From: Mobula hypostoma
Lineage: Eukaryota
Direction: 5' to 3'
NCBI RefSeq assembly: GCF_963921235.1
Contig: NC_086097.1
Location: 32,552,001-32,616,000 of the forward strand
Length of the DNA stretch: 64,000 nt
Shown: positions 1 to 56,300 of the stretch, piece after piece
Numbering within the stretch: position 1 is the stretch's first letter
How the letters are laid out: every line of letters starts with the position of its first letter
Notes under the pieces: generated by a model
Databases searched by the model: none
The model's input: only the letters and a program-made list of their open reading frames with translations
What the model was told of the DNA's origin: nothing
Position numbers and translations under genes: made by a program

Positions 1-1158
1 AGGCAGTATCTATGGGGGAAGGGGTGAATAAACAGTCCATGTTTCAGGCTGAGACCCTTCATCAGGACTGGAAAGGAAGGGTGAAGAAGCCAGAAAAAGG
101 TGGTGGGGGGAGCTGCGAGCCATCTGCTTTCTACCTGCAGTTATACGACATACTTAAAAGCATGGAGAACACGAATAATCAGTCATGGAGCGGGAGAGAG
201 TGAGGGAGAGGGGGACGCAAAACAAACCTGATTTGTTAGCTTTCCTCTCTCTAAAGATGCTATTTAACCCACTGGGTACCTTAGAACTTTGTTTTTAATC
301 ATGTGAGAGAGAATGAGCAGTATAGATAGAGTTAACGCTAGCAGGCTTTTTCCTACTGAGGTTGGGTGTGAGGTCAGAGGTTAAGGGTTAAAGGTGAAAT
401 ATTAAGGAGAACCTAAGGGGGAACTTCTTCACTCAGACGGTGTTGAGAGTGTGAAGCAAGTTGCCAGTGGAAGTGGTGGATGCAGGCTCGATTGCAGAAA
501 TTAGATGGATGGGAAGGGTATGGTCCAAGTGCAGGTCGATGGGACTAGACAGAATAACAGTTTGCATGAAATACATGGGCCAAAGGGCCTGTTTCTCTAA
601 AACAATAAATGTCACATGTCAGAGATAAAAGAAAACTGATTCTAATTTAATGTTCTGAGGCAATGAGTTTTAAACTGGGCATTGATGGCACAGCGAGCAG
701 AACTGCTGCTTTGCAGCACCAATGATACCAGTTCAATCCTAACATCTGGTGCTGTGTGGAGTTTGCACTTTCTCCCTGTAACTGCATGGGATTCCCCAAG
801 GTGCTCTGGCTTCTTTTCCTCAGGTCAATGGGTTAACTGCAGCAGTATGTGGGGTAGAATCTGAAAGGTAGTAGGGGAATGTGGGGACAATTAAATGGGT
901 AAAGTGTATATTGGTGTTCAAGGGTTGGCACAGATTTGGTGAGCTGAAGGATCGGTTCTTGTGTTGTATCTTTAGGAAAAGCTATAAAATGTAGAATACT
1001 AGAACACTGAGCCTTTGATCAGAATTGAGCAAGTAAGAAACAAAGCACAGTGCAGAAAGGAGTGAAGTGTCGGACTGGTACAGTGTTGTGCTGTGGAGAG
1101 GGCAGGAAGAGTATGTTGGAAAACTGAGGTTGGTAATGGAAAAATTCTTGTTGTTGGG

Positions 1159-14300: not shown

Positions 14301-17300
14301 GCCTTCCAGGAGTGAAGAACACTGTCCATTAGCCTGCAGGAACATAGCTCTAAAAAATCTCCACAGAGTCTTAAGCAGCTTGTTTAACAAGAACCCCAAT
14401 TCTCACTTAGGATGCAAGAAGTCCTAGGTTCAAACCCCAGATGAGCCCTGATTTCCCACTGTAATAAGACATTACACAGTGGGGGAAAATGTCGCGTCCT
14501 TTTCAAGGTGGTTAGTCCACCTTTGGTCCCCACCTGGCACTCAGCACTCACCTGTGGCTCCCTGTAGCTGTTTGCATGTGACAGCGGCCACACCCTGGGC
14601 AATGGCTTTGACAAGCTGGCTAAACCAGGTGAGGGTAGCTGACGGGTCTCAAACCCTCGGTGAGAAGGGAGTTGTCTATCCCAGCATGTGAAGACAGTCT
14701 CCAGCGGATTGAGTGGACGAGACCAATGGAAGGTCCAACGGTCAAGGCAGTCTCTGCAAGCGTCGTGGAATGCATAGGGCATGACTAGACACAGAAGATG
14801 TCTGGTCATCCACTGCGCCTAGTCCCATCTCCAGCCATCTCGACTCTTGTTTTACCACTGGATCCAGATGAGAATTGGGAAGAGAGAGTGAGGCTGACGC
14901 TGCGCAACTCTCCCTCACTTAAATCCAAATCATGCGCTAGTCTCGACACCATCAATTGGTGTCGAGGTCTTCATTGACAACGATGGACGAACATGAATGA
15001 AGACTACTGAATGATTCCCTAGTATAAGATGAACTCTTGACCTCATAACCTACCTCATCATGGCCTTGCAACCTCATTGTCAGCCTGCAATGCACTTTCT
15101 ATGTAACTGTAACACTTTACTGTGTTCTGTTATTGTGTTTCTCTTGTACTATCTCAATGCACTGTGTAATGAAATGACTGGCATTTAAAACAAAGTTTTT
15201 CATCTGCACCTCAGTACATGTGACAATAATAAACTAATTTACCAATGTCATTCCCTTTACCATCCATGAAATCTACTGTAGCCACTCAGCTAGGCCACTC
15301 TAGAGCACCTCCTCAACCTGTAACCTCCACTGTGGCAGCAGGCAGAGAACACCACCAGCTCCAGGATCCTCTCCAAGTCTCACAGTATCCTGACTGGAAA
15401 TACAGTGGATTCTGGTTAACTGGGAGACATCAGGACCAGTACATTTTGGCCCAATTAAGCAGCTGTCCCAATTAGCCTAAGTTTCATGGAAATAGTATAA
15501 AAAAAGATAAACTGCAGCAAATTATGCATTTAAATGAAATACAGAACAAATCAGAACACTAACAATGCTACTACAGTACTATAAAACTTTAGTTCCTGAT
15601 AGTTATTGACGGATGAATTCACTGTACACTGTTTTTTTGATCAACTGTAAATAAACAAAATTGCGTAGATGCCTGGTGAGAATAACGGATTGCCTCCATA
15701 CAATTTCATCCTCCAAACCTTCATTTTCATTGTAATATTCAAGATGATTGTGGATAACTTCAAATTATTTGTGGTTTCCAACTTGAAGTAGTGAAGTAGC
15801 CATTTCTGGCATCTCCTAGCCCGAATGCTTGAAATCGCAGTAAGCAAAACAATTCAGAATTGACATACTGCTTAGTTATCATCAACTATCAGTGACAAAT
15901 GATTACTGCTTTTTGAACACAACACTCAACAGACGCTATTTAAAAACTGTTTGCTTTAAGCACAATGTAGTGAATTGAATTGAATTGACTTTATTACTTG
16001 CATCCTTCATATACACAAGGAGTAAAAATCTCTATGTTATGTCTCCGTCTAAATGTGCAATTTATAGTAGCTTATAATAAACAGTATGTATAACAGGATA
16101 GCCAGTATAATATAGAAATACAGTTGTGTCAGCATGAATTAATCAGCTGACGGCCTGGTGGAAGAAGCTGTCCCAGGGTCTGTTGGTCCTGGCTTTTATG
16201 CTGCGGTACTATCTTCCGGATGGTAGCAGCTGGAACAGTTTGTGGTTGGGGTGACTCTGGTTCCCAAAGATCCTTCAGGCCCTTTTTACACACCTGTCCT
16301 TGTAATTGTCCTAAATAGTGGGAAGCTTATATTTACAGATGCGCTGGGCTGTCCACACCGCTCTCTGCAGTGTCCTGCAATTGAGGGAGGTACAGTTCCC
16401 ATACCAGGCAGTGATGCAGCCAGTCAGGATGCCCTTAATTGTGCCCCTGTAGAAAATCCTTAGGATTTGGGGGGCCCACATCAAACTTCTTCAACCGTCT
16501 GAGGTGAAAGAGGCACTGTTGTGCCTTTTTCACCACATAGCTGGTATGTACAGACCACGAGAGATCAGGTGATGTTTATGCCAAGGAACTTAAAGCTGAT
16601 TTCCCTCTCAACCCCAAATCCAGGGATTTCAGTAGGGGCTAGCCTGCCTCCATTCCTCCTGTAGTCCACAACCAGCTCCTTTGTTTTTGCTACATTGAGG
16701 GAGAGGTTATTTTCTTGATATCACTGTGTCAAGGTGTTTAATTGCCACAAAAGTGCACACGACTAACTCTAGTTAGAAACTTCTGCAATAGTTTCCTGTT
16801 CCATTTAAGCAGCATAATGCCCCAAATAAACAAAGTGATTCTTGGCTAATTTCTTGATTAGTTCTTATTCTTTAAGAGTTGTCCCAAATAAGTGGCTGCC
16901 CCAATTAACTGAAGGCCCAATTAACATGAATTCACTGTATATCCCAAAGACAAGATTTAGAAATCTTGAACAACACATACAAAATGTTGGAGGAAGTCAG
17001 CGAGTCAGGCAGGATCTATGGAGGGGAAAAAATGGTCAATGTTTCAGGCCAAGATCCTTATCATTGTTCCTTCATCATCACTGGGTCTAAATCCTGAGAC
17101 TCGGTAAGGAACAAGTTAAATGTGGTTCCTCCTTGGTGTATGCTAAAATGAAATGGAAGTCTATAAGACAAAGTGCTGTTAGCTTGGAGAGTGATTGTTT
17201 AGGAAAGTACAAGACAACAAGTCTACAGGGATGTCTTGATAAAGTTAAGGGAATACAAGTCTACAGCCATAACAGTGGAAAATAGTGAAAAACATTTTTC

Positions 17301-20300
17301 TGGGAAAGGTGAGGTTATTGTGCAGGTGCAGATACCAATTGTATGGAAAAGTACCAGTGTCAGGGGTTTTGAAGGGTTTAAAAAGGGGTACTTTCTTGGT
17401 GCAGCAGGGAAGGGAGTTTTGTCTTGGGTTGAATCACAGCTGATGCTGAGATAGGAAACAATAAGTACATCAAGAGAGTCAGAGTTAGACCGAAAGAGAG
17501 AGAAAGAGAGAAAACAGGCTGCATGTAAGATTGTCGGATCTGTGGCTCACTCCAGATGGGCTTGCTTAATGAATGATAGTATTATTTAGATAGCTGTATT
17601 GCTATTGCTAAAGAGATTTTTTTTCTTTCTGTATTGGATTTGTGAGAGTTCTAATAAAGTGTTTTCTTGTGGCCTTGAACACGCATATCAGCTCCTTGGT
17701 GTGCAGATACATATTGCATGCGAAAACCCAGAGCTGAATTAGAAAAGAACACATAACAAATTTTAAAATAATTTTCCTTCACAGACTCCTTCCCCCAACA
17801 GTTCTGTGGAATTCGCTACATGCACTGTAGCTGATGAAGTAAGTAGTTCATAGCAATTTTCTCTGAGGTATTTAGGGAATTGGAAGAAAATGCTTTTCTT
17901 GCCGATGACAATGCACGTTTGAAATCCCACACACCACACTGTGAATACTCACCCAACTGGACAAGAGAGTGCATGGGTCCAACGCCACCAAGGATACCAG
18001 GTAGTTGATTCTTTCTGATGTCAGTTAGCCATTCATTAAGTGCGTATGACACGAGCTTGTCCACTCCCAACAACCTGCAGAATAACCAGTAAAGTTCAGT
18101 ATCAGATGGAAGCCAGCTCGCTGCTGAAAGAGGAGTTGAGAACAGAGATACACAGACAACGCCAAAAATGCACTCATTAGTTTTGATGATAAAAGGGAAA
18201 GGTTCTATAGGTTCTCCAGACTTTATTCCTTGGAGGATAGAAGAGTGAAAGCAAATTTGAAAGAAGTATACAAAATTATAAGGAATATAGATAAGGGCAA
18301 ATGCAAGCAAGCTTCTTCCACTGAGGCTGGGTGAGACTAGAACTAGAGGTCATAGGTTAAAGGTGAAAAGTCAAATATTTAAGGGGAATCTGAAGGGGAA
18401 CTTCTTCACTCAAGAGGGTGCTGAGAGTGTGGAAATAGCTGACAGTGGAAGTGGTGGATCTGGGTTTGATCTTAACATTCAAGGGAAGTTTGGATAAGTA
18501 CATGGATGGGATGGATATGGTCAGGTGTAGGTCAATGGGACTATGCAGACCAACAGTTTGCCATGGATTAGATGGGCTGAAGGGCTTGTTTCTGTGCTGT
18601 ACTGCTCTATGACTCTGATAAAAAAGGACTCCTGGGAGCAGAATGAAAAGCTATCAGAGCTAGAGTCAAAAGAGAACACAGATGTTGGAACTTGAAGCAA
18701 CCAACAAGATGCTGGTTAGAACTCAATGGGTCAGGCAGCATCTGTGGAAAGAAATGGAAGTCAATATTTTGGTCAAGAATTTTCATCTAGATTTAAATGA
18801 AGGATCTTAACCTATTTGTCCATTTCTCTCTACATATGCTGCTATCCCACTGAACTCCTCCAGCATTCTGCTTGTGGTTATCAGAGTCACTTTGGCCATA
18901 ATCCGAACAAACCTTGTGTTCTCTTGAATACAAACAACAGGAATTCTGCAGATGCTGGGAATTCAAGCAACACACATCAAAGTTGCTGGTGAACGCAGCA
19001 GGCCAAGCAGCATCTGTAGGAAGAGGTGCAGTCGACGTTTCAGGCTGAGACCCTTCGTCAGGACTAACGAAGTCGACTGCACCTCTTCCTACAGATGCTG
19101 CTTGGCCTGCTGCGTTCACCAGCAACTTTGATGTGTGTTCTCTTGAATACTTCACTGCTGCTTAGAGATTATGCACAATGGGACCATCCTCTGAGTGAGA
19201 GTTTTCTGAGATCCACAGCCTTACATTGGGCAGGCTCTGTCTCAAAGCCCACTTCCTCACCCAAAGGGTAATTCCAACAATCATCAGGCCTATTACGCTC
19301 TGTGCCAAATTCTTGTCAGAGCTAAGGGTTAACGTACGAGGAGTATTTGATGGCTCTGGGCCTGTACTCGCTGGAGTTTAGAAGAATGAGGAGGAGGGCT
19401 GTCACTGAAAACTACTGAATATTGATTTGATAATGTGGATATAGAGAGGATATTTCCAATAGTGGGGGAGTCTAGGACCAGAGGGCATGGCTTCAAAATA
19501 GAAGAACATCCTTTTAGAACAGAGATAAGGAGGAATTTCTATAGCCAGATGGTGGTGAAGCTGTGTAAATCATTGCTACAGCCAGCTGTGGAGGCCAAGT
19601 TACTGGGTGTAGTATTAAAGTGCAGGTTGATACTGTAGGTTCTAGATTATTAAGGGTATCGAAGGTTATGGGGAAGAGGCAAGAAAGTAGGTTTGAGGGA
19701 AAATAAATCAGCTATGATTGAATGGTGAAGCAAATTTGATGTGGTGAATGGCTGAATTCTCCTAGGTCTTATGTACTCAGGTCAACAAGGACAGCATTAG
19801 AAGAGCCATTATTCAGATTGACTGTGCTTACCCATGTCTGTAGCACAATCTTTTCAACTTCAACTCAGAACAGTTCAGCTGAGCCAGTCCAATCAGTATT
19901 CCTGCCAAGGTGCCCTGCAATAAGAAAGATGCTGTGGAGACCTTGTGATCAGTCTGCTGTGCTGCTTCCATGCGGAAATGAGCTTATTCCAGTAACCACA
20001 AGTTCACACACTTCAGCCTAAGAGACCAGGCATTCTATAAAAGAGGATCACTCCCTGGCCCTGGAGAGTGCTGTAGCTCAGATGGGTGCAGGTACGTAGT
20101 TCATTGCAAGTGGCAATACAGGTAGACAGGATGATGAAGGTGCTTGGTACACTGGTCTTCATTGGTCAGGAACTGGGATGTCATGTTACAGCTGTACAAG
20201 ACATTGGCATAAACCTCATTTTGAATATTGTGTGCACTTGTATGAAGGAAAAAGTAATAGTGGACACTACCCACCCTGCAAACTGCCTTTTCTAAAACCT

Positions 20301-35300: not shown

Positions 35301-38300
35301 TCTTGCCCACAGAACCTCCTGTCCATTTCCTTAAATAACGGATCCCCTATCACCACAGTTTACCTCTTCTCCCACTTTTCCTTCTGAATCATAGAGGCAG
35401 GCTTAGTGCCAGAGATGAGACCACTGTGACTTCTGATAGACCCCTTCTCTTTGGACGGGATGTCCAGTGGTTAAGTGTTTAATGCTGCTGCCTCACAACC
35501 TCAGACACCTAGAGTTAGGCAGTTTTTGCCTGCAGTTTGCAGCTTCTCCCTGTAGTCGTGTAGTTACCCCTGGTGCTCCAGTTTCTTCCCACACTGCAGA
35601 GATGTTAAATGGTAGCTTCATTAGTTGCTGCAACTTGACCCTGAGTGCCAGCAGAATCGTGGTAAAATGCAGGGGAGGGGGAAGTGTTAATGAGGATATG
35701 AAAGTTAAAATGGGTTAAATATAGATGAGTGCCAATGGTCAGCATGGAAGTGGTGGGATGAAGGACTTGCTTCCATGATATATGACCTGTTGTACCCGGC
35801 TGATTTTGCGATCCAAAGGTTCTTTGGAAGTCAAGAAATGAGGCATTAACACTTGTTGGTTATGGCCATTTAAGTGTTACCTGAATGAAGAATGAACAAA
35901 TAAAGACACAATCATCTTATATTAAAAACTAGCTCAGAGTTGACAAAAGCAAGACATTGCAGAAATAAGAATAACCTATGAAATAGCCAGATTCAGTAGC
36001 ATGACACCTGCTACACAGAAACTTCTAGAAAAATAGATTCAGCTATACAATTACTGAAGAATTCACTGACATATACAGTAAACATACGAACAAGCACAAA
36101 CTACAAGAAAAAAAAATCTTCCACTTTAATCCAACAAACCCTATGATTTCTCAATCTCTCACCATTTAAAAAATTACTTTGTTTTTTTTCTGTTACATGC
36201 AATGTTAGTGACCTCGTTTTCTATGGTGTTCCACCTACCATGCACTCGGATACCTACTCAGCTTGTCAGTATCCTCCTGAAACTCAGTTACACACTTCTC
36301 CGTACTCACCATCCCACCAAGATGAGTTGCATCTGCAAACTTGGAAATATACCATCAGCTCCCTGCAGCCTAATCATGGCTATAGATTGTGAATTGTGAG
36401 GGTGCAAGCACTGATTTCTGTAATTTCCCACTAACCACTGCCTGCCAACCTGAAGTAGCTTAGGTTACTCCCACTCTGTTTACTGTTTGAAAACTAAATT
36501 ATTCGTCTATTTATGCCTTTATAAACTTATAAAAAACATACGCAGTCCATTTTTATGTTTCTCTCCAGTCACAGTGTACCTTGGGTTTCTTCATCAGATT
36601 CTTGGTCTTTTTTTTGCTGAGTTCTAAAATATTCCCAGTCCACTGGTATTCCTGGTCAGTCATTAAGTTTCTTCCTCATATTTTGCACCATCTTTTACTT
36701 CCTTTGTTAAGCCTGATTTATACTTCTGCGTTAACTGGACGCCGTAACTTACGCAAGTGGCCTATGCGTGTTGTGAGCATTTATACTTGTGCGTTGGTGT
36801 GTCTGCGTCGCTTGGCAATTTGCGCACGTCACGCATGCGCATTCATCCGCCCGCGCAAGGCTTCATGGTCATGGTAGTCTCGGGGTAAAAAAGACGCGAG
36901 CCTCTCTTTTCGTGCAAAATGTGTTCTCCATAATTTCGGAGGTCTGTAAAGCGTTATGGAAAGCATTGCAGCCAGAGTTCCTTCCCTGTCCTTCAGTCAC
37001 CCAATGGGAAGCTATTGCAGTGTAGGATGACATGCGATGCTACCAAGTGGACCAATCACAGTTGTTGCGTTCTGCGTTGCTGCGACGCGCAGTTACATTT
37101 TGGGAGAGGTGCGCGTCGCAGCAATGCAAGTTCTCGCGTAGGGTTCCGTGGCAGCTTTACGGCGACGCGTTGATGCAGAAGTATAAACCAGGCTTTAGCC
37201 TAAATCCATTTTCTTGTGAAGGGAGAAAAGGGGCTTGTTGTGCTCCGTGTTGCTCTGCCAAGGGTTGTGGGCATGCTATGTTGATGCCACAGTGTGTGGT
37301 GATACTTGAGGGCTATCCCCAGCATGTGCTTAGGTTGCATTGGTTGTTACTGGGTTCAATTCCCGTCACTGTCTGTAGGGAATTTCTATATTCTCCTCAC
37401 AATCGGGTGGGTTTCCTCCAGGTGCTCTGATTTCCTCCCACAATCACATTTCAAAAACAGATGGGTTAGCAAGGGTTAGTTAGAAAGTTGTAGTATGCTC
37501 TTTTGGCTCCATAAGCATGGCGACAATCGCAGGCTTCCCCAGCACATATTCGGGTGTTAGTCATTGACGTAAATGATGCACTTCACTCTATGTTTTGATG
37601 TACATTGACAATTAAAGCTAATCTTTAATCTTTAAGGATTCTGATACAACTGAGTTTTGCTGGGCCATGGATTCTGTAGGCACTTGCCCTTTCAGGTGTA
37701 TGGTTGCAGCAGGAATAGAAAGTTCTACTCAATCCAAGTTAAACTGCAGGGAGCTTTTGTCAAAGTTATCTGTAATGTGCTGGGAAGAGCAAGGTTTGAG
37801 TTTGGGTTGGGGGTCACTTTCAGTCTTGCGTTTTACTGACCTGATCAATATTTAGTCGAAGGGGCATCAGCGTAATGCGGAGACAACATTCCTGAGGCAT
37901 CCGAGTGGAATCGGGACTCACATGCAGTGCCTTAATGGTCAGCTGAAAGAGAAATTACCAGAGGTCACCAAAACCTATTCAGGTTTGATTATAAGGGGGC
38001 CTATGTGTGGTGAAATGAACCATATTCCCAATTTTAAAAGATGTAAGGACGATCTGGTCCTGGTAATTGAACAGTTGGTAGAATTTCAGTGGTATTGATA
38101 TTTTCTCTGATTGGGAATCCAGAACAAGGGAGCAAAAGCAGGTGCGGTGCAGTACAGTAACACACACAAAACTCTTGAGAAACTCAGTGGGTCAGGTAGC
38201 ACCTATGGAGCCAATGGACAGTCAATGTTTTGGGCTGAGACCTTTCATCAGGACTGGGTGAAATATGACGTGCCAAACTAATTAAACTAATAATGAAATA

Positions 38301-41300
38301 TTACTTTGTCCAACATTACTGGAAGCAGCCATAGAGTTCCTTGCTGTTGATCCCTCCCTGTCCGCAACCAAAGGATTAGGTCAACAACCTGGCCTGGGAC
38401 TCAGCCTCACCATGTTGGAATGAGCTTTTCTTGGTAGCTCTTTGCTGGAGTACAAGTATAGGAACTTGTTCATCTGAGAAGTTGCAAGGCGGTCTCGGAT
38501 CTCAAGGTCCTGGACTATGAAGACTTGTCGTGAGATAGGACTCTCTGTCGAACCTGGATCCACAGGGTGGCCTGTCTGAGGATAAACTTCATGCTGAAAT
38601 TTCACCTTTGGGAATAAAAAGAAACAAACTTGGTAAATGGTGAACTGGTTTATTATTGTCACAAGAACTAAACTAATTTGACAAGGAGATGGGAATGGAG
38701 TGATAGGGCTGAGGATGGAGCAGTTGGTATGCAAGTTGATGCACTGAGGATGGTAGGGAAAATTGCAGTTAGTGGGATGAGCTGAAGTGTAACATATAGG
38801 GAAAATTGAAAATGGTGATGAATACAAGCCCGAAGGTGTTATATTTGAATGCACACAGTATATGAAATAAGGCAGATCTTGTAGTGCAGTTAGAGATTGG
38901 CATTGTGGGCATCACCAAGTCGTGGCTGAAAGAAGATCATAGTGGGGGGGGGGGAGGAGAGAAGATACAGTCAGATGGATCAGTATTACAGTGGAGTAAA
39001 GGAAATTATAGAGGTATGAGTTGGAAGATAGCCAAAGCTAATTGGAAGGGGGCACCATCAGGAATAACAGCAGAACAGCAATGGCTGGAGTTTCCTGGGG
39101 CAAATCGGAAGGTGCAGGACAGAAAGATGCAGTATTCTAAAGGAGGATGAGGCAACTGTAACTGATAAGTGAAGTCAAAGTCAGCATAAATGCAAAGGAG
39201 AGGGCATGTAATATAGCAAAAATGATTGGAAGTTAGAAGACTGGGATCAAAATAAGGCAACTAAAAAAGCCACAGGGTGAAAAAAGATGAAATATGAAGG
39301 TAAGCTAGCCAATAATATAAAAGGGAATACCAAATGTTTTTTCAGATATAGAATGAGTAAAAGAGAGGCGAGAGAGGATATTAGACCATTGGAAAATGGT
39401 GCTGGAGAGGTAATAATGGAGGACAAAATAGAGGCAGGCAAACTTAAGAAGTATTTTGTGTCAGTCTTCACAATAGCAGTATGCCAGAAATTTGAGAGTG
39501 TCAGAGTGCATAAGTAAATCTAGCTGTTATTACCAAGGAGGAGGTACTTGGGAAGCTGAAGGGTCTGAAGATAGGTAAAGTCACCTGGACCAGATGGTGT
39601 ACACCTCAGGGTTCTGAAAGAGGTAGCTGAAGAGATTGTGGAGGCTTTAGTAATGATCTTTCAAGAATCACCAAAGGACTGGAAAATTGCAAAAATGTCA
39701 CTCCGCTCTTTGGGGGGGGGGAAGGGAGACAGAAGAAAGAAAATAATAGCTCAGTTAGCCTTACTTCAGTGGTTGGGAAGATGTTATGTCCTTTAAGGAT
39801 GAAACTTTGGGGTATTTGGAGGCACATAATGAAATAGGCCAAAGTCCACATGGTTTCCTTAAGGGGAAATCTTGGCTGACAAAGCTGTTGGAATTATTTT
39901 AGGAAATAACAGGCAGGATTAACAAAGGACAGTCAGTGGATGTTGTTTACTTGGATTTTCAGAAGCCGTTTGACAAGGTGCTGCACTTGAGGCTGAATAA
40001 CTAGAGCCCAGAGTATTATAGGAAAGATACTAGCATGTATAGAAGATTGGCTGACTGGCAGGAGGCAAAGAGTGGGAATAACGGGGGCCTCTTCTGGTTG
40101 GCTGCTGGTGACCAATGGTGATCTGCAGGGGTCAGTACTGGAATTGCTTCTTTTCACATTATATGTCAATGATTTGGTTGATGGAATAGATGGCTTTGTG
40201 GCCAAGTTTGCAGACAATACAAAGATTAGTGGAGTGACAGGTAATGTTGAGGAAGCATGGAGTCTGCAGAAGAACTTAGACAGATTGGGAGAATTGGGAA
40301 AGATGTGGCAGATGTAATATAGTGTAGGGAAGTGCATGATCATACACTTTGGCAGAAACAAATAAAAGCATGGACTATTTTCTAACCGGGGAGAAAATTC
40401 AAAAAAGTCAGAGGTGCAGAGGGACTTGAGTCTTTATGCAAGATTTCCTACAGGTTAACTTGCAGGTTAAGACAATGATAAGGAAGGCTAATGCAATGTT
40501 AGCATTCATTTCGAGAGGACTAGAATACAAGGGCAAGAATGTGATGCTGGGGCTTCATAAGGCATTAGACAGATCGCACAGAGTATTGTGAGTAGCTTTG
40601 GGCTTCTTATCTAAGAAAAGATCTATTGGCCTTGAATAGGGTCTAGAGGTTTACGAGAATGATTGTGGAATTTAAAGGTTAACGAATGAGGAGCGTTTAA
40701 TGGCTCTGGGCTTGTTCTTGCTGGAGGTTAGAAGAATGAGGGGGAAACTCATTTAAATCTATTGAATATTGACAAACCTAGATAGAGTGGATGTGGAGAG
40801 GATGTTTCCTATAGTGGTTGAGTGTAGGACCAGAGGGTACAGCCTCAGAATAGAGAAACGTCCATTTAGAACAGAGATGAGGAGGAATTTCTTTATCCAG
40901 AGGGTGGAGAATCTGTGGAATTCATTGTCACGGACAGTTGTGGAAGCTAAAGTCATGGAGCATATTTAAAGCAGACGTTGATATGTTCTTGATCAATTCA
41001 TTACAATGCATAGTGATAATACATGGTAAAGCATAACAGAATAACGTGTTACAGTTACAGAGAAAGTGCAGAACAGAATAAAAATAAAGAATCAGGTTTA
41101 TGATTATCAATACATGCTGTGAAATCTGTTGTTTTAACAAATAAATAGTGCAGAAGACAAATGAGATCATAAACACAAGAAATTCTGCAGATGTTGGAAA
41201 TCCAAAGTAACACGTACAAAATGCTAGAGGAATTCAGCAGGTCACGCAGCATCAATAGAGGAATAAAGAACCTTGATGAAGAGTCTCAGGCCAAAACGTT

Positions 41301-44300
41301 GACTCTTTATTCTCTTTCATAGATACTGCCTGACCTGCTGAGTTCCTCCAGTACTTTGCATGTGTTACAAATAATGAGGCAGTGCTCGTCGTTCATGGAC
41401 CATTCAGAAATGTGATGGTGGAGGGGAAGAAGCAGCTCTCCACCTCTGTTCATCGCTTCTTGAAGATGTCGTCGCTAGTGGATAAGGTTCAATATCTCAG
41501 AGCACCTAAAATAGGCCAAACACATTGATGCAATCATGAAGATTTACAAATTTCTACTGACGTATGGTGGACAGCATTACTGGTTGCATCACAGGCTGGT
41601 ATGGAGCCTCCAATGCATAGGATCACAAGATGCTGAAGATGGTTCAAAACTCAGATTCAATCACAGGGACAACCCTCCCTACCACCCAAGACGTGGTTCC
41701 TCAAGAAGGCAGTAGCTTTAACTGAGGACCTGCAACATCTGGGAAAAGCCTTCTGTTTATGATGGCTTTAACAAGAGGGCAAAATTTTAAGCTGAATGAA
41801 GGAAAGAACAGGGGATATTAGAGGTAAAGTGTGTTTTTTTTTAATATAAACACAGCTAGTGCCCTTTTTCTAGGGTGGGAAATGGCTAATACAAGGGAGC
41901 ATAAGTTTAAGGACAGCTAGTGCCCTTTTTCTAGGGAGGAAAGTAGAGGGAGGGATATCAGAGGTACGTTTTTTCTTTATACAGAGAGTGGTGGATGAGT
42001 GAAATGGGCCGCTAGAGGTAGTGGAAGCAGCAGATACATTCAAGGCATTTAAGGAACTCTTGGAAAGGCACATGGATTAAAGAAAAATAGAGGACTATGT
42101 GGGAGGAAAGGGTTAGATTGATCTTGGAGTTGGTTAAAAGGTCAGCACATTGTGGGATGAATGGCCTGTATTGCACTGTACTGTTCTATATCCTTGTACT
42201 GCCTTCAGGGAGGAGAAGCAGTCATCTGAAGGCCCATACTTGATATAGGAGCAGCTTTTTCCCCTTTCCATTACATTTTTGAATTGTCCATGAACCCATG
42301 AACACTACCTCATCATTTATTTTCTTTTGTAGTACTTATTTTTGTAACTTATAGTAAATTTTGTGTCTTTGCAGTGTACTGCTGCAACAAAACAACAAAC
42401 TTCATTTCATAAATCAGTGATAATAAATCTCATTGATTATTTTTCCTCCATAAATGGAGCAGACTCACAGATAACTGATAGGAAACAGTAAGGCAGAGTT
42501 AATCATCTCAGTACAGTGCACTCTTTACTGAATCTGTGGGTGGTGTATTGTGGCTTCAAATTCAACACCAAAGATTTAAACATAAGAATCAGCTCAATAC
42601 TGAGTGAAGGCTAGACTTTCAGGTCAGACTTTAAATCAAGGCCACATATCTTTTCTCAGGTGTGTTTTAAATTTATTACTCAACAGAGAATACCAGTTTT
42701 GTGGTTCTTTGCTATATGACTTATAAAGCTGAACACGTTTTAAAATACTGCTGTCCATCAAACACTTTCCAACCCTTGTTGACGTGAAACACGCAATAGA
42801 AATGGATGTTCAATCTCCATTCTGATGGGCAATTTCAGGATTGTTGGTCGAATGGAGTTACACTACCATTCTGTGTTTCACCTTTGGCATCCAAGTTCAA
42901 ATAAAGTCCAATGTGATGTGCTAAAAGTATCCTGTTTGCTGAATCCATTCATCTCCCCATTCCTGGGTGAACTTACTGGTTGTCTGACCCATTGATATCC
43001 TGAAATATCCAATATCCAGTGAGAAACTCACGTGCTATGTTTATGTTTGTCTGATGTACTGTGCAAACAACCCCCCTATGAAGGCACATCATACTTTCCC
43101 AACTCAAGACAGTCACAAGATAGTGAAGCAATGCCTTAAAGATACGATATAGCTGACGTGAGGACATTAGCACCATTTAAAAGCCATCTACATAGGCACA
43201 TGGAAGGGAGACATTTAGCGAGCTATGGGCCAAAGGCCCTGTTTCTTTGCTGAATGTCTCATGATTCTACAATAGGAAGGCAGAAAAAGATGGAAAAGAG
43301 TGTTGTAGAAAGAGTTAAAGATTCACTTTATTTGTCACGCATATTGGAACATATAGTGAAGTGTGCCGTGTTGCGTCAACGACCAACACAGTTCTGGGGC
43401 AGCCTGCAAATGTCGCCATGCGTCCAGCATCGATAAAGTATGCCCACGACTCACTAACCCTAACATCTTTGGAATGAGGGACAAAACCCATGTGATCATG
43501 GGGAGAATGTACAAAGAAGGGTAGGAAGATGCTCACAGGAGGACAGATCGAGGATGCTTCAGCTTCTCACCTTACTGAATTGAATCTCCATCAGGATATC
43601 GTGGTTCCTTCCGGGTCCACCCTGAATGCGCCTGGTCGAACGGCCGTGTCGCGCAGAAGACTGAGATGGGGAGCTTTGGGAAGAGCTGGAGCCAGTTCTC
43701 ATGCTACAAAGACAGGAGCATAAAAATTAGCAGCAATGCATTGCCACATCACCAGGTTCAGGAACAGTTATTACCCTTCAACAATCAAGGCCATGAACTA
43801 GCATGGATAACTTCACTCACCTCATCTATGAACTGATTCCACAACCTATAGACTCACTTTCAAGGATTCTATAACTAATATTTTCCAATATTATTTATTT
43901 GTTTTTTTTGTATTTACACAATTTGTCTTTTTTTGCACATAGGTTGCTTGTCAGTCTTTGTGTTTAGTTCTTCAATGATTTCATTGCACTTCTACCTACC
44001 GTGAATGCCCACAAGAAAACAAATCTCAGGGTAGTATATGGTGACATATACGTACTTTAATAATAAATTATATTCAACAATTAATAAATTTACTTTGAAC
44101 TTTGATATTCTGCCTTAATGAGTATTTTAATTGAAGAAACAGCAGAATGTTTATCCCCAGCCAAATTAAAATGATCTCCTGTCCCCATTGATGATGCAAA
44201 GATCATTGCCAGAAGCTCAGCAATCTCCTCCCTCACCTCCCACAGTAGCCTGGGGTACATCTCATCCGGTCCTGGAGATTAATCCAACTTGGTGCTTTCC

Positions 44301-47300
44301 AAAAGCTCCAGCACATCCTCTTTCTTAACGTCTGTATGCTCAAGCTTTTCAATCCACTGCAAGTCATCCCTACAATCGCCAAGATCCTTTTCTGTAGTGA
44401 ATACCAAAGCAAAGTATTCATTAAGGACCTCAGCTATCTCCTCCAGTTCCATACACACTTTTCCACTGTCACACTTGATTAGTCCTATTCTCTCACGTCT
44501 TATCCTCCTCTTGCTCTTCACATACTTGTAGAATGCCTTGGGGTTCTCTTTAATCCTGCTTGCCAAGGTCTTCTCATGGCCCCTTCTGGCTCTCCTAATT
44601 TCATTCTCAAGCTCCTTCCTGTTAGCCTTATAATCTTCTAGATCTCTATCATTACCTCATTTTTTGAACCTTTCGTAAGCTTTTCTTCTTGACTAGATTT
44701 ACAATAGCCTTTGTACACCACAGTTTCTGTACCCTACCATCCTTTCCCCGTCTCATTGAAACTTACCTATGCAGAATGCCACACATATATCCCTGAACGT
44801 TTGCCACATTTCTGCCGTACATTTCCCTGAGAACATCTGTTCTCAATTTATGCTTCCTAATTCCTGCCTGATAGCTTCATATTTCCCCTTACTCCAATTA
44901 AACGCTTTCCCAACTTGTCTGTTCCTAACCCTCTCCAATGCTATGGCAAAGGAGATAGAATTGTGATCACTATCTCCAAAATGCTCTCCCACTGAAAGAC
45001 ATGACACCTGGCCAGGTTCATTTCCCAATACCAGATCAAGTACAGCCTCTTCCTCTTGTAGGCTTATTTACATATTGTGTCAGGAAACCTTCTTGAACAC
45101 ACCTAACAAACTTCACCCAGCCTAAACCCCTTGCTCTACGGAGATGCCAATCACTATTTGGGAAATTGAAATCTCCTACCATGACAACCCTGTTATTATC
45201 ACACCTTTCCAGAATCTGTCTCCCTATCTGCTCCTCGATGTCCCTGTTACTATTGGGTGATCTATAAAAAACACCCAGTAGAGTTATTGACCCCTTCCTA
45301 TTCCTAACTTCTACCCATAGAGACTCAGTAGACAATCCCTCCATGACTTCCTCCTTTTCTGCAGCTGTGACATTATCTCTGATCAGCAGTACCACACCCC
45401 CACCTCTTTTGCCTCCTTCCCTGTCGTTTCTGAAACATCTAAAGCCTGGCACTCAATGTAACCATCCCTGCCCCTGAGCCATCCACGTCTCAGTAATGGC
45501 CACAAAATAGCTCCAAGTACTGATCCACACTCTAAGCTGATCCGCTTTGTTTATGATCTTTCTTGCATTAAAATAGACACAACTCAAACCATCGGTCTGA
45601 GCGTATCCCTTCTCTATCACCTGCCTATCCTCCACCTCGCACTGTCTCCAAGCTTTCTCTATATGTGAGCCAACTGCCCCTTCCTCTGTCTCTTCAGTTC
45701 GATTCAGTCCCCCAGCAATTCTAGATTAAACTCTCCCTAGTAGACTTAGCAAACCTCCCTGCCAGGATATTGGTCCCCCTCGGATTCAAGTGCAATCTGC
45801 CCTTTTTGTACAGGTCACACCTGCCCCAAAAGAGTTCCAATGATCCAGAAATCTGAATCCCTGCTCCCGCTCCAATCCCTCAGCCACGCATTTATCCTCC
45901 ATCTCACTCTATCCCTATACTCACTGTTGCATGTCACAGGCAATAATCCTGAGATTACTATCTTTGAGGTCCTGCTTCTCAACTACCTTCCTAACTCCCT
46001 GTAGTCTGTTTTCAGGACCTCCTCCCTTTTCCTACCTATGTCGTTGATACCAATATGTACCATGACCTCTGGCTGTTCACCTTCCCACTTCAGGATATTG
46101 TGGACGCGATCAGAAACATCACGGACCCTGGCACCTGGGAGGCAAACTACCATCCATGTTTCCAGTTATAGTGGGTCAAAGTCAAAGGAAAATTTATCAA
46201 TGTACACTACATATATATTCATTTTCTTCAAGGCACTTACACGAAAATAAAGAAATGCAATCAAATTTACAAAAAAAACTATACATAAACAAAGACTCAC
46301 AAAGAGACTATTAATAACAAGAGAGCACAAAATTAGCTTCTTCCTCTCCATTATCATATTTCTGACAGTCCATGACCCTTGATCTCAACCTCATTAATTT
46401 CACTTTTTGCACTATTTTGTAAGTTATGGTAATTTTATATCTTTGCACTGTACTGCTGCCACAAAATAACAACTCTCATGTCATATAAGACAATGATAAC
46501 AAAGCTGACTCTGTTTCAGATTCTGAACTCAACCACAGTGGTCTCAGCAACACACATCAAAGTTGCTGGTGAACGCAGCAGGTCAGGCAGCATCTGTAGG
46601 AAGAGGTGCAGTCGACGTTTCAGGCCGAGACCCTTCGTCAGGACTAACTGAAGGAAGAGTGAGTAAGGGATTTGAAATAATTTTGGATCTCCCCCTCCCC
46701 CTCCAACTTTCAAATCCCTTACTCACTCTTCCTTCAGTTAGTCCTGACGAAGGGTCTCAGCCTGAAACGTCGACTGCACCTCTTCCTACAGATGCTGCCT
46801 GGCCTGCTGCGTTCACCAGCAACTTTGATGTGTGTTGCTTGAATTTCCAGCATCTGCAGAATTCCTGTTGTTTGCACAATGGTCTCAGAATTGATTAACA
46901 ATGTAAACAAGCTTAGTGTTGACAGTAGTGGTAGGAAACTCACGGTATGCTTTTAACAGGGGAACGTCTGGTGACGGCTGTTCCGAAGTCCCTTCCTCCA
47001 TACAGATGCCACACAACTGAGATCTCCTTCACCACATAGCGGACCTCTGGGATCGGCAGGTGCACGGGTGCCTTGCTTTTGTCCACTTTCTTGACTGGCA
47101 ACGTGAAATGCTCGTCTTTGATGAGAATGGGTCCAGGGGTCAGTATCTTCACTACGGGTTCAGACTCTCTCTGCTGAATAAGATACGTAACAATATCTTC
47201 AGATAGCATCACCAGGCAGGACAAGGGCAACTTGCACATGGGAGCATCACCACCTGCAAGTACCTCTCCACACATTATCTTGACATGGAAATATTACTAG

Positions 47301-50300
47301 CTCTGTATATGAGATTCTTTCTGGAATTAGTTTGTAGGAATATATTCAGCACATGCACTATAGCAATTCAAGAAGATAGTCCACCATCATTTGTCTAGGG
47401 GGAATGGAGATGGATATGAACTTTATTAGGAGCTTCTACATCCCAATAACAAAATATTAAAAATAAATAATAAATTGATAAAGAAATTGCATAGCATGTC
47501 ACCTCTAACTCTTACATATCCCTAATGCCTCTACCACAACCCCTGGCAGTATGTTCCATGCACACACCATTCTCTGAAAAAAATCCTACTGGTCCTCACC
47601 CCCATTCCTTCCCTCAAGTCACCTTAAAAGTGCATCCTCTCATATTAACTACTGCCACCCTGATTCGGAATACTCCACCTATTGTGTCAGGAATCCTTTC
47701 TGGACACAGCTAACAAATTCCGCTCCATCCAAGGATGTGCCAATATTAGGGACATCGAAGACACCCATGACAACAACCCGTTATTTTTACACCATTCCAA
47801 AACCTGCCTCCCAACCTGCTGCTATTTGGGGTTGTCTGTAGAATGTTGCCAATACAGTGGTTTAATCTATCGGTATGCTTAATGAGACCCCAACACCAAC
47901 CCCCATCCCTGTCCTTCTGAACATCAACAACAGGGCCAGAGACATGAAACCCTTCACCCCTGGGATCATTCTTGTGAATCTACTCTGGACCCTCTCCAGG
48001 GCCAGCCCATCCTTAAATAAGAGGCCCAAAACTGCACACAATACTCTATGTGATGTGATCAATAAATGCTTTAAAAAGGCTTAACAGTACATCCTTACTT
48101 TTATATTCTTGTCCTCTTGAAATGAATGCTAACATTGCATTTGCCTTCCTTACCACCGACTCAACTTGCAAGTTACCCTTCAGAGAATCCTGATCTCCCT
48201 TGTACTTTATCGTTTACCCGCACTGCACTTTTTCCAGTAGCTTTTGCACTTTATTCTGCTTTGTTATTCTTTTACCTTATTATAGCTCTATGCACTGAGT
48301 AGTAACTTCATTTGTATAAAGATTAGCTTTATTTGTCACATGAGCATCAAAACATACAGTGAAATACGTTGTTTGCATTAAATTAAATCAAATCAGTGAG
48401 GATTGTGCTAGGCAGCCCAGAAGTGTCACCTTGCTTCCAGTGTTAACAAAGCATACTCACCAATCACCCTAACCCTAAACGTACATCTTTGGAATGTGGG
48501 AGGAAACTGGAGTACCTGGAGGAAACCCATGTAGTCATGGGAGAACATACAGTGGCTGGAATTGAACATCGATCTTATCGCTGGCACAGTAAAGTGTTAT
48601 GCTTAACCGTTGTACTACCATGCTACCCTGTACAAACAGTATGCAAGTCAAGCTTTTCACTGTATTTTGGTACATGTGACAATAATAAACCAAAACTAGG
48701 ATTCACAAGTACATTTGCACTTCTGATCTCTGAATTGGCTCCTCACTTAGAAAATAGTTTAATTCCTGGTTAGTTAACCCATAGGAGCGTTTTGTCAGCT
48801 GACTGTAAAACCTGAACAAAGCCTTTCATTTGCTTCAGATTCCAGTAGCACCATACCTTTACAACTCACCGTGACTGAAAGCTTTGGTGCATCTAGGATG
48901 CAGAAATCATCACTCTCAGGCTGCTCACTGGGTAATGGGGTGTAGGCTGCATGATGCTCTGGAAGAACCATGGTGGAACTTGGGCTCTGCTCCTGGGAAG
49001 AGCCTCCACTTTCATCGGGGAAGAGGAAAAGATCAGACTGTGCAGGCTCTCGCTCCCGGATGAGGTTTCTGTGAAGCCCTGAAGATGGTAAAAGATGACT
49101 GACATAACCAGCAACAAATGACCCCAAGACATTTGGGCTGAGACCCTTCATCTGTTCTCACCTATCACCTGCCAGCTTGTACTCCTTCCCCTTCGCCCAA
49201 CCTTATTATTCTGGCTTCTTCCCCCTTCCTTTCCAGTTCTGATGTTGGGACCTGGCACAAAGCATTGACTGTTTATTCCTCTCCATAGACACTGCCTAAC
49301 CTGCTGAATTCTTCTAGCATTTTGTGTGCAGGACACATAAATTAATTTCTCTTCTCAACCAGAGGTCAAGTGCCTTCTTCTGAAGTAAAACAGAAAACAC
49401 AAACATCACTCAGCCCATATTAAATGGAGAGTACAGCAGGTAGAACCCTGTAATAACATGGGGCGCCTGGAGGGGGTAAGATGATAAAGGTTGGGCAAGG
49501 AAAGACCACTGTAGCATATGGATTTTAAGCTCCTTCCTGCCTTCCTCACCAATACAAACTGTGCTCTGGTGTGACTTCACATCCCTGGGGCAGGAACATG
49601 ACATCTGGAGTACCCTCCCACTGTCACAGTCACACAGGCTGGCCGTGTCCAAAGTTCCTGCAGCAACCATGGGTAATTTCAGCATCCACCGGCTGACAAC
49701 ATAAACTGCAGAGCACCAAGAGTTTGCCAGATGTGTGCGCTGGGTAACTGGAATAATACACTGGAGGCTATTCACAAGTTAGTCAGATCACAGCAAGTCT
49801 CTACAGTAGTGGCTTGGCATAATCATAGTGTAATACAGCATGGAAACAAAACCCTCCAGCCCAACTCATCCAGACTGACTAATCTGTCTCTCCAAACTAG
49901 TTTAATAAATTTTTTTCTTCCCCTAATCCTTCAGGTTTTCTAACGCTCTGAGCTTATCCTCTGATTTCCTGACTCTGTTCACTAACCATTTGATTGTGGC
50001 GCGACAGGAGGGGAAGGAGGTGATGACGGTAGGACATCCATCTCCTCCATTGCATCGATCATGAGGTCCCGCAGCATCTTCTGCTCAGCCTCAGCAAGAC
50101 CTGACGTTCTGCTGGGAGTGCTGTCACCGGATCCAGCCTGGGAATAGAGTTATAACCAGTCCATCATGTAACTTCAGACTAAAGGTTTCCAAAGCTGAGA
50201 GTTCCCTCTCTTTGTGTCACCTGTAGACTTATTAATACAGTTTTTAAAAAATCACTTTGGCTTCTATGCTCTAAGTAGGGTGAGAGGAGGCTCCAGCACA

Positions 50301-53300: not shown

Positions 53301-56300
53301 TGTGTCTTTGCTGATTCTTTGCTGCACACTTGAGTGCTTGGTGCAGAGTACCGATGCTTTTTTTTTGCTGGTGGGGGAAGGGGGATTGTTGCTTTGTTGC
53401 TGCTTATGTGTGGGAGGGGGAGCTCGGGGGGCTTTGGGGTTCTAACATTTAACTGTCATTCATTCTTTGGGGGCATTCCTCTGTTTTCGTGGATGGTTGC
53501 GAAGAAAAACCTTTTCAAGATGTGTATTGTATACATTTCTCTGACATTAAATGTACCTTTGAAACACAATGAAAAATCTCACCTTTCTTTAAATTTACCA
53601 GTGCATTATGACATTTCTCAGACAAGTACAATGCAGCGTCATCAATAATTATTCTGGAAGACAAAGGAGATTGATTATTACAGCAGTTAGTTGCTGGAAA
53701 CACAGAACAAACAGACACTATAACTGAAAGGGTCTCAGTCAGTACCTGAGTGTAGAGCAGTACTTGTCCAGGACAATGTTACTGGATATGGTGAAGGTTT
53801 CAACAGTCACCACTGCTCGAACAGGTAAATACAGTGGCCTAGAATTGAGAAACAATCGATGTAAAACAGTTCATGAGCATTTCCCAGTTCAAATCATTTC
53901 CCACAACTTTAATCTGTACATCTTCTCTTCTACCTCCAACAAACTGATAAGACTATGCCTAACATCTACCCCTACATTCTCAGCCAACCCTTTCATCTCA
54001 GTCATGTTGTTATAAACTTCAAGCAATTTCTTGATATTCTACTAAAACTGTCCTTGACATCACTTTAGTTGCTTGTACTTGTCTGAACAAAGGAATAGGA
54101 CAAAGACTTTGGATAGCCAGGGTAGCACGGTAGCATAGCTGTTAGTGCAGTGCTTTACCGCACCAGTAATCACCAGTTGGAGTTCAATTCAGGCATGCTA
54201 TGTTGGCACTAGAAGCAAGGCAACACATGTGGTTGCCCCCACCGTATCTTTGGGCTGTGTTCAACGTTGATGCAGAACGACACTGTATGTTTTGATGTTT
54301 GAACGTACAGATGACAAATAAAAGACAATCTTTATCTTTTGACCTGAGGAACTGCTGAATAAATCAGTCTTCACTTTGGACAAACTTTTAAACAAGTAAA
54401 TATGAACAAACATCAGGATGTGGGAACAGGTTCAGCTTACATTGATAGAATCAAATTGCTCGAAAGGAAACCGGACAGGAAATTATACTGCATCTAACCT
54501 GTGCCGTCCCTACCCAGGAGGATGTCATATATATGTCGCACAGGTTTATTTGAAATAGTGTATCAGCATAGAGGAAACATTTTATTGTATCTAGCCAATA
54601 CTACAGCTGTCTTGGGTGTTTAAAGTGAGAGGGAGCTTTACTCTAACTTGTGTTATCCCTTCCCTGGGCGATGCAGAAGTCTGTATTCCCTTTAAATGTG
54701 CCATACATCACACATTGACTGCAAATCCCCCGGTCGATACCCAGAGGTCATCTAAGTCCAGAGGACAAAGCCAAAGGTCAAAGTCAGGAGGTAGAAATCC
54801 AAAAGGTTGAAGACCTAAGTCAGTGAGTTTGGTGGTAGAGGCTGGAAGATTGAATCTGCATGAGACTGGAGCTTAGAGGCCCAGTTTCTGCAAATCTGGG
54901 AGTCTGGGGTCAAGGACTGGAGGCCCGGAAGGGGCCTGAACTGGGGCAGGAGGACAGTATGTGTGAGAGGGTGAGAGGCGGGAAAGGAGCTTGCTTGTGC
55001 AGTTCTGCGTTGAGCTGTGTTGTTCTGTCGAGCATTATGAGCATGCTAGGTTGGTGCTGGAATGTGAGGTGACATTTGCTGGCTATCCCCAGCACATCCC
55101 TGGATGTGTTGCTTGCTAACACAATTGTACGTTTTGATGTACACGTGATAAATAAACTTGAATCCACATCACTGAATGATCATGCAGAATGAAACAAGTG
55201 GGGAGAAGTGTTCTGTTGAGGTGCTACTCACCTGTAGTCCAGGGCACAGCTCCAGAGGTGTAGGTGGAATGTGGTTGCATTTGCTGGACGAGCATAGCCC
55301 AACACAGGTTCCTCCGTAATATTCATGAAATCCAGGATCTGCACAAATATCAAACAATTAATGGAAATCAGTAGCAAGCTTTGTATCTGGTGATCTTGGT
55401 GCGGCCTCCTCTACATCAGTGAGACTCGATGTAGATAGAGGGCTGCTTCATTCAGCACCTACGCTCCATCCTCCACAAAAGGCAGGATATCTCAATGGCC
55501 ACCTATTTCAATTCAACTTCCCATTCCTATACCAACATGTTTGTCCACGGCCTCCTCTATTGCGGCCAAACTCTAGGATGAACACTTCACATTTCATCTG
55601 GGTACCCTCCAACCTGGTGGCATTTTGCCAGTAATTTCTCTTTCCTCCCCCTTTTTTTCTATTCCCCATTCCAGTTCCCCTCTCACTACTTTGAACTCTT
55701 CTCACCTGCCCATCACCTCCCTCTAGTCCCTTCCTTCTCCCTGTTTTTCTTTGGTCCACTCTCCTCTCCTATCAGATTCCTTCTTCAGTCCTTCACCTTA
55801 TCTACCTACCACCCCCCAGCTTCTCATTATTCCCCCCACCCCCACCCTCACTTGGTTTCACCTGTCACCTGCCAGTTTGTACTCCTTCTTTTCCCCCCAC
55901 TGTCTTATTCTGGCTTCTTCCTCCTTCCTTCCAGTCCTGATGAATGGTCTCAACCTGAAAAGTCGGCTGCTGAGTTCCTCCAGCATTTTGTGTGTACTAT
56001 TTAAGAATTCCAGCATTTGCAGAATCTCTTGTGAATAGAAGTTAATATCATCGAACAATACCAATTTTTTTATTCTTACAAAAGTTGTTTGTGAACCCCC
56101 TACCTGGATTTACAATAAACAAACTGCAGATATCTGAATCAATATGTCCAGGAGGCAGAAATCTCCCTAATGTTTGAAGTACCAAGAAACAGCATCAGAG
56201 AGAGAGGCTTATTGCAATTTTAGACTCCCCTGCAGTTTACCCCTCTGGAGAAATGCATGGTGGCAGACAAGTTTAATGGAGAGAATATTAAGTAGCAATT

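Follow-up and report, generated by a model that had tools for sequence, protein, structure and literature searches.

Hairpin mini-insertions in Mobula hypostoma are very probably truncation products of a Penelope-like element, formed anew at each insertion

Seven short hairpin insertions lie in a 64,000-nt stretch of Mobula hypostoma DNA, referred to here as the window. We consider it highly likely that they are truncation products of a Penelope-like element (PLE) bearing a GIY-YIG endonuclease, made anew at each insertion and dead on arrival. The hairpins represent the shortest form of a PLE insertion pattern that has been described before. Comparisons with published systems draw on sections of the papers cited.

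Results

Inventory of the family in the window

The initial annotation named seven hairpins in the window, and all seven are present. An arm profile was built from 21 hand-picked arm segments and searched over the 64,000-nt window, giving 23 matches. These fall into about 14 loci, seven of which are the hairpins; a weak match at 239-294 was left out. Single arms account for about half of the family loci and one locus retains coding sequence, so that the family is not made up of hairpins throughout. The arms of a hairpin, described before as two inverted copies of a terminal repeat, are unequal, as set out below. Coordinates are collected in Table 1. Element coordinates take C3 of the hammerhead core as 0, with the 46548 copy as reference.

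The arms of the 46548 hairpin are 98% complementary over 132 nt, and the hairpin folds at -272.7 kcal/mol (z -33.9). Hairpins 18932 and 46548 had been called near-identical, and they are indeed 98-99% alike, yet they differ in orientation and in turn point.

Table 1. Family copies in the window and features of the 46548 hairpin. Hairpins are named by position.
Feature	Position	Strand	Remarks
Left TSD copy, 46548	46534..46547	+	14 nt, 1 mismatch to right copy; sites lacking the insertion in organisms C and D
Short arm, 46548	46548..46677	-	PLE 3' end without tail; +93 to -36; intact minimal hammerhead, C3 at 46641
Turn, 46548	46678..46679	.	about 2 nt outside both arms; placed from loose contig ends before 46680
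Tail arm, 46548	46680..46874	+	5'-truncated PLE end; -64 to +130
Minimal hammerhead in tail arm, 46548	46740-46775		C3 46744; predicted cut before 46772
Tail of tail arm, 46548	about 46840-46874		35-37 nt
CCAGCA motif in tail arm, 46548	46816 and 46847
Right TSD copy, 46548	46875..46888	+
Hairpin 18932	18915..19150	-	young subfamily, as 46548, in opposite orientation; TSD 17/17; tail arm 18932-~19072 with intact motif, C3 19061; short arm begins near +25
Hairpin 12755	12741..12994	+	inside Tc1 transposase frame; TSD 12/14; hammerhead core decayed; 3-nt microhomology at turn, 12845-12847
Hairpin 60707	60692..60901	-	TSD 15/15; neither arm with complete hammerhead
Old hairpin 18672	18669..18887	-	arms 74% alike; TSD not significant
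Old hairpin 41170	41167..41373	-	short arm extends further upstream than tail arm; TSD not significant
Old hairpin 58861	58861..59077	-	short arm extends further upstream; near-intact motif in short arm, C3 58975; TSD not significant
Longer 5'-truncated copy, older subfamily	55370..56035	+	GIY-YIG remnant, 3' UTR, hammerhead, tail
Asymmetric copy	49126..49345	+	long + arm with 3' UTR from 49145, preceded by short inverted piece of hammerhead region
Single arm	38129..38256	-	arm profile
Single arm	16953..17067	-	arm profile
Single arm, decayed	57995..58082	+	arm profile
Single arm with tail, decayed	4042..4126	-	arm profile
Copy cut by window edge	1..111	-

Each hairpin carries one tail and, when young, two arms from one template

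In all hairpins the truncated 5' ends meet centrally and the 3' ends point outward. In all seven one arm extends to about +93 and its partner to about +130, and the tail of about 35 nt is thus found on exactly one arm in each. Had the arms chosen between the two ends 50:50 at random, this one-tail pattern would be expected with a frequency of 0.8%. In the four dated hairpins the short end and the target-site duplication (TSD) share 2-6 nt. The 46548 copy has two CCAGCA motifs, at +72 and +103, 31 nt apart and one upstream of each end, and a pair of this type, spaced by 28-33 nt, is present in all six other tail-bearing copies checked (1 mismatch allowed). The spacing is close to the length of the tail; any function for the motif would be a guess.

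The two arms of each of the four younger hairpins match each other better than any other arm (58/59, 59/59, 53/57 and 50/56), and both arms of 18932 carry a variant that is missing from both arms of 46548. By these mutual best matches, both arms of these four hairpins come from one template. In the three old hairpins the partner arm ranks fourth to sixth for five of the six arms, which may reflect their age.

Target-site duplications and empty sites indicate that the younger hairpins inserted as single units

Each TSD was compared with 1,500 random position pairs. The repeats at 18915-18931/19134-19150 (17/17), 60692-60706/60887-60901 (15/15) and 46534-46547/46875-46888 (13/14) are matched in score by none of the 1,500, and that at 12741-12754/12981-12994 (12/14) is reached by 0.5% of random pairs. 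The four insertions said to have direct repeats of their own, 14-17 bp long, therefore all have significant ones. The three hairpins put down as older copies show flank matches of only 7-8 nt, equalled by 3.6%, 3.6% and 14% of random pairs. No TSD is therefore shown for them.

We looked for empty sites at 46548 by aligning contigs of four runs (of 24) to 46150-47500. Record 9 of the related organism C covers 46425-46510 and 46885-47223, separated in the record by 29 letters, and so lacks about 345 nt. In record 17 of organism D, likewise related, the aligned parts at 46451-46537 and 46882-47499 are 6 letters apart, and about 338 nt are missing. The records align over 81-629 letters on each side. 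The element plus one TSD amounts to 341 nt, and the deviations of 3-4 nt may be small indels. Right-flank contigs from organisms A and B start at 46851, which places 24 letters inside the tail against a bridging bar of 31 letters in the tool used, and the insertion appears to be present in both. Over this flank the window and B disagree at 10 of 650 letters (1.5%), the window and A at none. Because the insertion is apparently present in A and B and its site is empty in C and D, it is probably older than the split between A and B and younger than their split from C and D. The recent activity that had been proposed is thereby borne out at the scale of lineages and no finer. The left flank of 46548, at 46200-46520, contains other short repeats, with a depth of up to 80,000 at 46426-46471.

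At 12755 the element and one TSD together measure 240 bp, and the same frame is open on both sides. Transposase matches flank the hairpin on both sides, the upstream one being weak (E 0.05). A plasmid search for a Tc1 relative spanning the site gave no match, so the empty site at this locus rests on frame continuity and the domain matches to either side.

Inverted repeats are difficult to assemble (Craig 2021, PMC8557442), and an assembly artefact, or two independent neighbouring insertions, could in principle produce such structures. The probability of either is close to nil: a single TSD encloses both arms, the arms of 46548 agree at all but 2 of 132 positions, the entire unit is missing from the empty sites, and the same type of joint occurs in four independent runs.

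The terminal repeat is linked to a GIY-YIG-bearing element

The Penelope origin that had been proposed is upheld by the longer copy at 55370-56035 together with the tail and the inverted, truncated arms. In this copy a decayed coding stretch, a pyrimidine-rich UTR, the hammerhead region and the tail follow one another without interruption. The coding stretch holds the broken C-terminus of a GIY-YIG domain, at about 55382-55625 and in three frames, and the hammerhead of the copy is decayed (C3 55937). The copy also has an internal deletion of about 30 nt at 55960-55970, just past the hammerhead cut site. In tblastn, two proteins from sharks and rays, P0004 (E 3e-10) and P0002 (E 3e-6), match the region 55382-55563, in alignments that span two frames of the window copy. 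A 48-residue piece of the longer copy finds four proteins among 1.84 billion representatives (best E 3e-6), and the proteins closest to the element remnant come from stingray and whale shark. The Pfam GIY-YIG model scores below its cut-off on the homologues (18.7 and 20.6 bits vs 22.6) and Pfam has no match on the three window fragments. Features (0.97) and structure alike place the final 140 residues of P0002 with GIY-YIG clusters; of the six structure rows for this C-terminus, two also carry RVT_1, in 40-48% of members.

Judged from sequence, then, the terminal repeat is the 3' end of a GIY-YIG-bearing PLE, with the ORF link known from the older subfamily's copy alone. The sequence upstream of the young arm is pyrimidine-rich and resembles the 3' UTR at 55630-55930. 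The linker before the endonuclease is cysteine-rich, by eye, in the homologue P0002; the window copy is truncated downstream of the linker. Such a linker is described for Neptune and Nematis (Craig 2021, PMC8557442) and suggests that the element is of the Neptune clade. The 64,000-nt window contains no reverse transcriptase (RT) remnant of the element, and protein searches found no full-length ORF with RT and GIY-YIG, returning one coral fusion prediction that is unusable as a partner.

Turn points differ between copies

Two readings had been offered for the hairpins: that they are extreme truncation products, or that they form a MITE-like, non-autonomous family. Loop junctions unique to every copy were held to favour the first, and this is what we found. 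The reach of the tail arm and short arm, respectively, is -64/-36 in 46548, about -12/+25 in 18932, -5/0 in 12755, about -3/+33 in 60707, about -3/+2 in 18672, about +31/-2 in 41170 and about +15/-1 in 58861. The turn thus differs in all seven, including the near-identical 18932 and 46548, and this points to independent truncation products rather than a family that copies itself.

The contigs agree with this. Across the four runs there are 1,160 joint rows, not all of which are hairpin turns; some joints go uncounted, and the turn of 46548 itself cannot appear as a joint. The best 15 of the 1,160 represent 15 different coordinate pairs and none dominates. Among these 15 the best depth is 311, vs about 10 for unique flank and 2-9 million for the arms. 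As a rough estimate the family numbers 10^4-10^5 copies, a figure that allows for up to about 30-fold inflation from overlapping contigs, depth not being copy number; on that footing none of the best 15 joints of 1,160 would account for more than about 0.3% of copies. Seven of these 15 end at coordinates 0 to -6, so the turns are not fully random. Upstream of 46680, 93 contigs (run X1) and 56 contigs (run X5) continue with other sequence (agreement 0.76 and 0.70), so that the tail arm of 46548 extends further upstream in other copies.

These data make it very unlikely that the hairpin is a self-propagating, MITE-like unit that is transcribed or excised and re-inserted whole. Hairpins do make up seven of the roughly 14 family loci, some of the best 15 joints of 1,160 recur at 15-30 times single-copy depth and may thus be common to perhaps 15-30 copies, and 18932 and 46548 are closely alike; against this stand the seven differing turns, that pair's among them, and the lack of a dominant joint among the best 15 of 1,160. 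Size and internal sequence, which would be fixed in a MITE, vary (about 180-327 bp, seven turns), and in place of symmetric termini and a TSD of fixed length there is a tail on one side and TSDs of 14, 14, 15 and 17 nt, unlike a DNA-transposon MITE. A hairpin RNA would also be predicted to hide both the ribozyme and the short start site.

The young subfamily stands out in A and B, where its depth at 46564-46609 exceeds that in C and D by a factor of 14-43. This excess suggests a lineage-specific burst, although the 88% likeness limit and contig placement both affect depth. Pattern scans of metagenome contigs gave no match.

The hammerhead is probably a passenger

The minimal type I hammerhead descriptor (stem I 4/4, stem II at least 4 pairs) is matched by three of 14 arms (C3 at 46744, 46641 and 19061), and one further arm nearly matches it. 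Calling the family ribozyme-bearing is thus right for two of the seven hairpins. Rfam gave no match over the window at gathering score. Around 46548 it gave 20 sub-threshold matches, mostly to miRNA models and none to a hammerhead; we regard these as chance, as miRNA models fit any long hairpin.

For an isolated arm, stems I and II are predicted with a probability of about 0.8, and the fold is no better than that of shuffles. In all three hairpin transcripts with an intact motif the computed pair probability of stem I is below 1e-9. The anatomy of the hairpins is such that the antisense arm is transcribed first on either strand. The hairpin is predicted to block hammerhead folding. Cleavage by minimal motifs requires dimers and does not occur in single ones (Cervera and De la Pena 2014, PMC4209133), and hammerhead cleavage is dispensable for insertion (Frangieh 2024, PMC11167929). 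With the start sites no more than about 130 nt away, the hammerhead would simply be carried along as a passenger. A rule by which the turn falls at the ribozyme cut site (+28) was tried and rejected, as none of the seven window turns and none of the best 15 joints is exactly there; the short arm of 18932 starts near +25.

The motif resembles the minimal hammerheads of metazoan PLEs in its core boxes, the bulged base before stem II, the 4-bp stem I and the palindromic CG that replaces helix III (PMC4209133). It differs from those of Schistosoma in having a stem II of 4 bp rather than 7-8 bp, which in the young subfamily opens with a G-U pair. Schistosoma has pairs of hammerheads on opposite strands 100-700 bp apart, and most single motifs are ascribed to truncated PLEs; the sections of PMC4209133 used here mention no cartilaginous fishes, TSDs or hairpin anatomy.

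Discussion

A model for hairpin formation

In the proposed mechanism, the GIY-YIG endonuclease would make a staggered double nick 14-17 nt apart, which would become the TSD. Both nicks would then prime reverse transcription, at two fixed sites near the element end that lie about 35 nt from each other, giving one arm with a tail and one without. One RNA would be copied twice with strand displacement, so that both arms come from the same template. Both cDNAs would halt after 60-200 nt and would presumably be fused head to head at microhomologies of 0-3 nt. The enzymatic steps are modelled on Poseidon of Anolis carolinensis (PAc), whose protein cuts and extends both target strands and whose sequence has, as proposed here, two internal reverse-transcription start sites downstream of the hammerhead that define a tail (Frangieh 2024, PMC11167929). 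The two sites are known in vitro for this Anolis element, and we infer that they are coupled to the two nicks. The window element is probably of another clade, given the cysteine-rich linker of P0002, and the sections of the PAc paper used here offer no model of the inverted product.

The main alternative for the second arm is snap-back, in which a single cDNA would fold back where it holds a short inverted match, hammerhead stem I for instance, and would then serve as its own template. Self-priming has been argued for by Arkhipova (2013, PMC3846280). It would explain why the arms share one template, and it fits the short microhomologies at turns (3 nt in 12755, 2 nt in 58861) and the seven of the best 15 joints (of 1,160) that end on the 5' strand of stem I. 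If it starts from the tail-bearing cDNA, however, the tail arm should in every case be the one with the longer upstream reach, which is true of five hairpins of seven, the short arm going further in 41170 and 58861; and the short end is fixed and matches the second in-vitro start site of the Anolis element. We therefore regard snap-back as rather unlikely, and it would alter the mechanism, not the verdict on the hairpins.

The source of the RNA could also differ from that in the proposed mechanism. Non-LTR retrozymes are ORF-less, hammerhead-bearing derivatives of PLE pseudo-LTRs that are non-autonomous and were present in the sole chondrichthyan sampled (Li, Clavereau, Pollet 2026, preprint 10.64898/2026.07.22.740005). 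A comparable ORF-less master RNA might borrow the PLE protein for the young subfamily, with the hairpins still made anew. The young subfamily shows no ORF link of its own, and the go-back joints 46869 to 46790 and 46641 to 46555 would fit partial tandems of such an RNA. Together with a third, 46645 to 46611, these joints suggest that elsewhere in these genomes the terminal repeat forms partial tandems, head to tail. Partial tandems are normal for autonomous PLEs as well (Craig 2021, PMC8557442), the pyrimidine-rich sequence upstream of the young arm is like the 3' UTR of the longer copy, and the six tandem repeats in the window include no head-to-tail array of the repeat, its units standing head to head. 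We hold a retrozyme-like master to be improbable. The retrozymes described form head-to-tail arrays with a hammerhead in every unit, whereas the window has head-to-head pairs that mostly lack an intact motif.

A bolder version combines these ideas: a PLE dimer would dock on the two CCAGCA motifs and prime one RNA from both nicks, an ORF-less hammerhead-bearing master RNA would drive the young subfamily, and the hairpin would be the normal product. We think this doubtful. If it were true, the 10^4-10^5 copies would constitute a natural record both of the second-strand step of PLEs, which is unsolved, and of a non-autonomous derivative of these elements whose insertions are inverted rather than tandem.

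Relation to known insertions

On the four features tested, the hairpins belong to the class of inverted pseudo-LTR insertions known for EN+ PLEs. The shared features are a head-to-head inverted, 5'-truncated copy, a tail on one end, one TSD around the unit, and microhomology or overlap at the inverted junction. In described insertions of this kind the tail measures 30-40 bp (Craig 2021, PMC8557442, Fig. 2 legend; Arkhipova 2013, PMC3846280). The hairpins differ in that their halves are cut to only 60-200 nt, so that no ORF lies between them, in their TSDs of 14-17 nt vs 8-10 nt in rotifer examples, and in a copy number that is far higher. How PLE inverted ends form is undefined in Craig 2021 (PMC8557442), and the many near-minimal, TSD-bounded copies allow tests of it through the one-tail rule, same-template arms and turn positions. 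Our literature search, with repeat databases and supplements outside its scope, returned no description of such mini hairpins in cartilaginous fishes, and the sections used of PMC5753468, PMC4316615 and PMC12602865 held nothing relevant to them.

The proposed priming from both nicks has a parallel in LINE-1. In LINE-1 twin priming both nicks prime on one RNA, giving an inversion with a microhomology junction. The second site of L1 is variable, however, and its cDNAs copy different parts of the RNA; here the second start site keeps a constant distance of about 35 nt from the first, and the cDNAs accordingly copy the same part. Crocodilian repeat libraries presumably also contain hairpin-shaped repeats classed as Penelope.

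Genomic setting

An ATG2-family gene lies on the minus strand of the window, among decayed LINE fragments, with a C-terminal piece at 2119-2496 (Pfam ATG2_CAD, E 4e-19). We read the open frame at about 46940-47170 (-) as another exon of an ATG2-family gene. The 46548 hairpin is about 50-70 bp from this putative exon and is therefore probably intronic. Intronic hairpins such as this would place long double-stranded RNA in host pre-mRNA, and the insertions offer clean presence/absence markers among rays or sharks. Hairpin 12755 sits in a remnant of a Tc1/Sleeping Beauty-like transposase at 12348-13064 (-) (Pfam HTH_Tnp_Tc3_2, E 5e-14), whose frame stays open through the 240-bp insertion. Old LINE fragments at 30354-32396 and 38959-40890 are 74-77% alike and inverted, 6-10 kb apart, and the window contains many further LINE reverse-transcriptase fragments.
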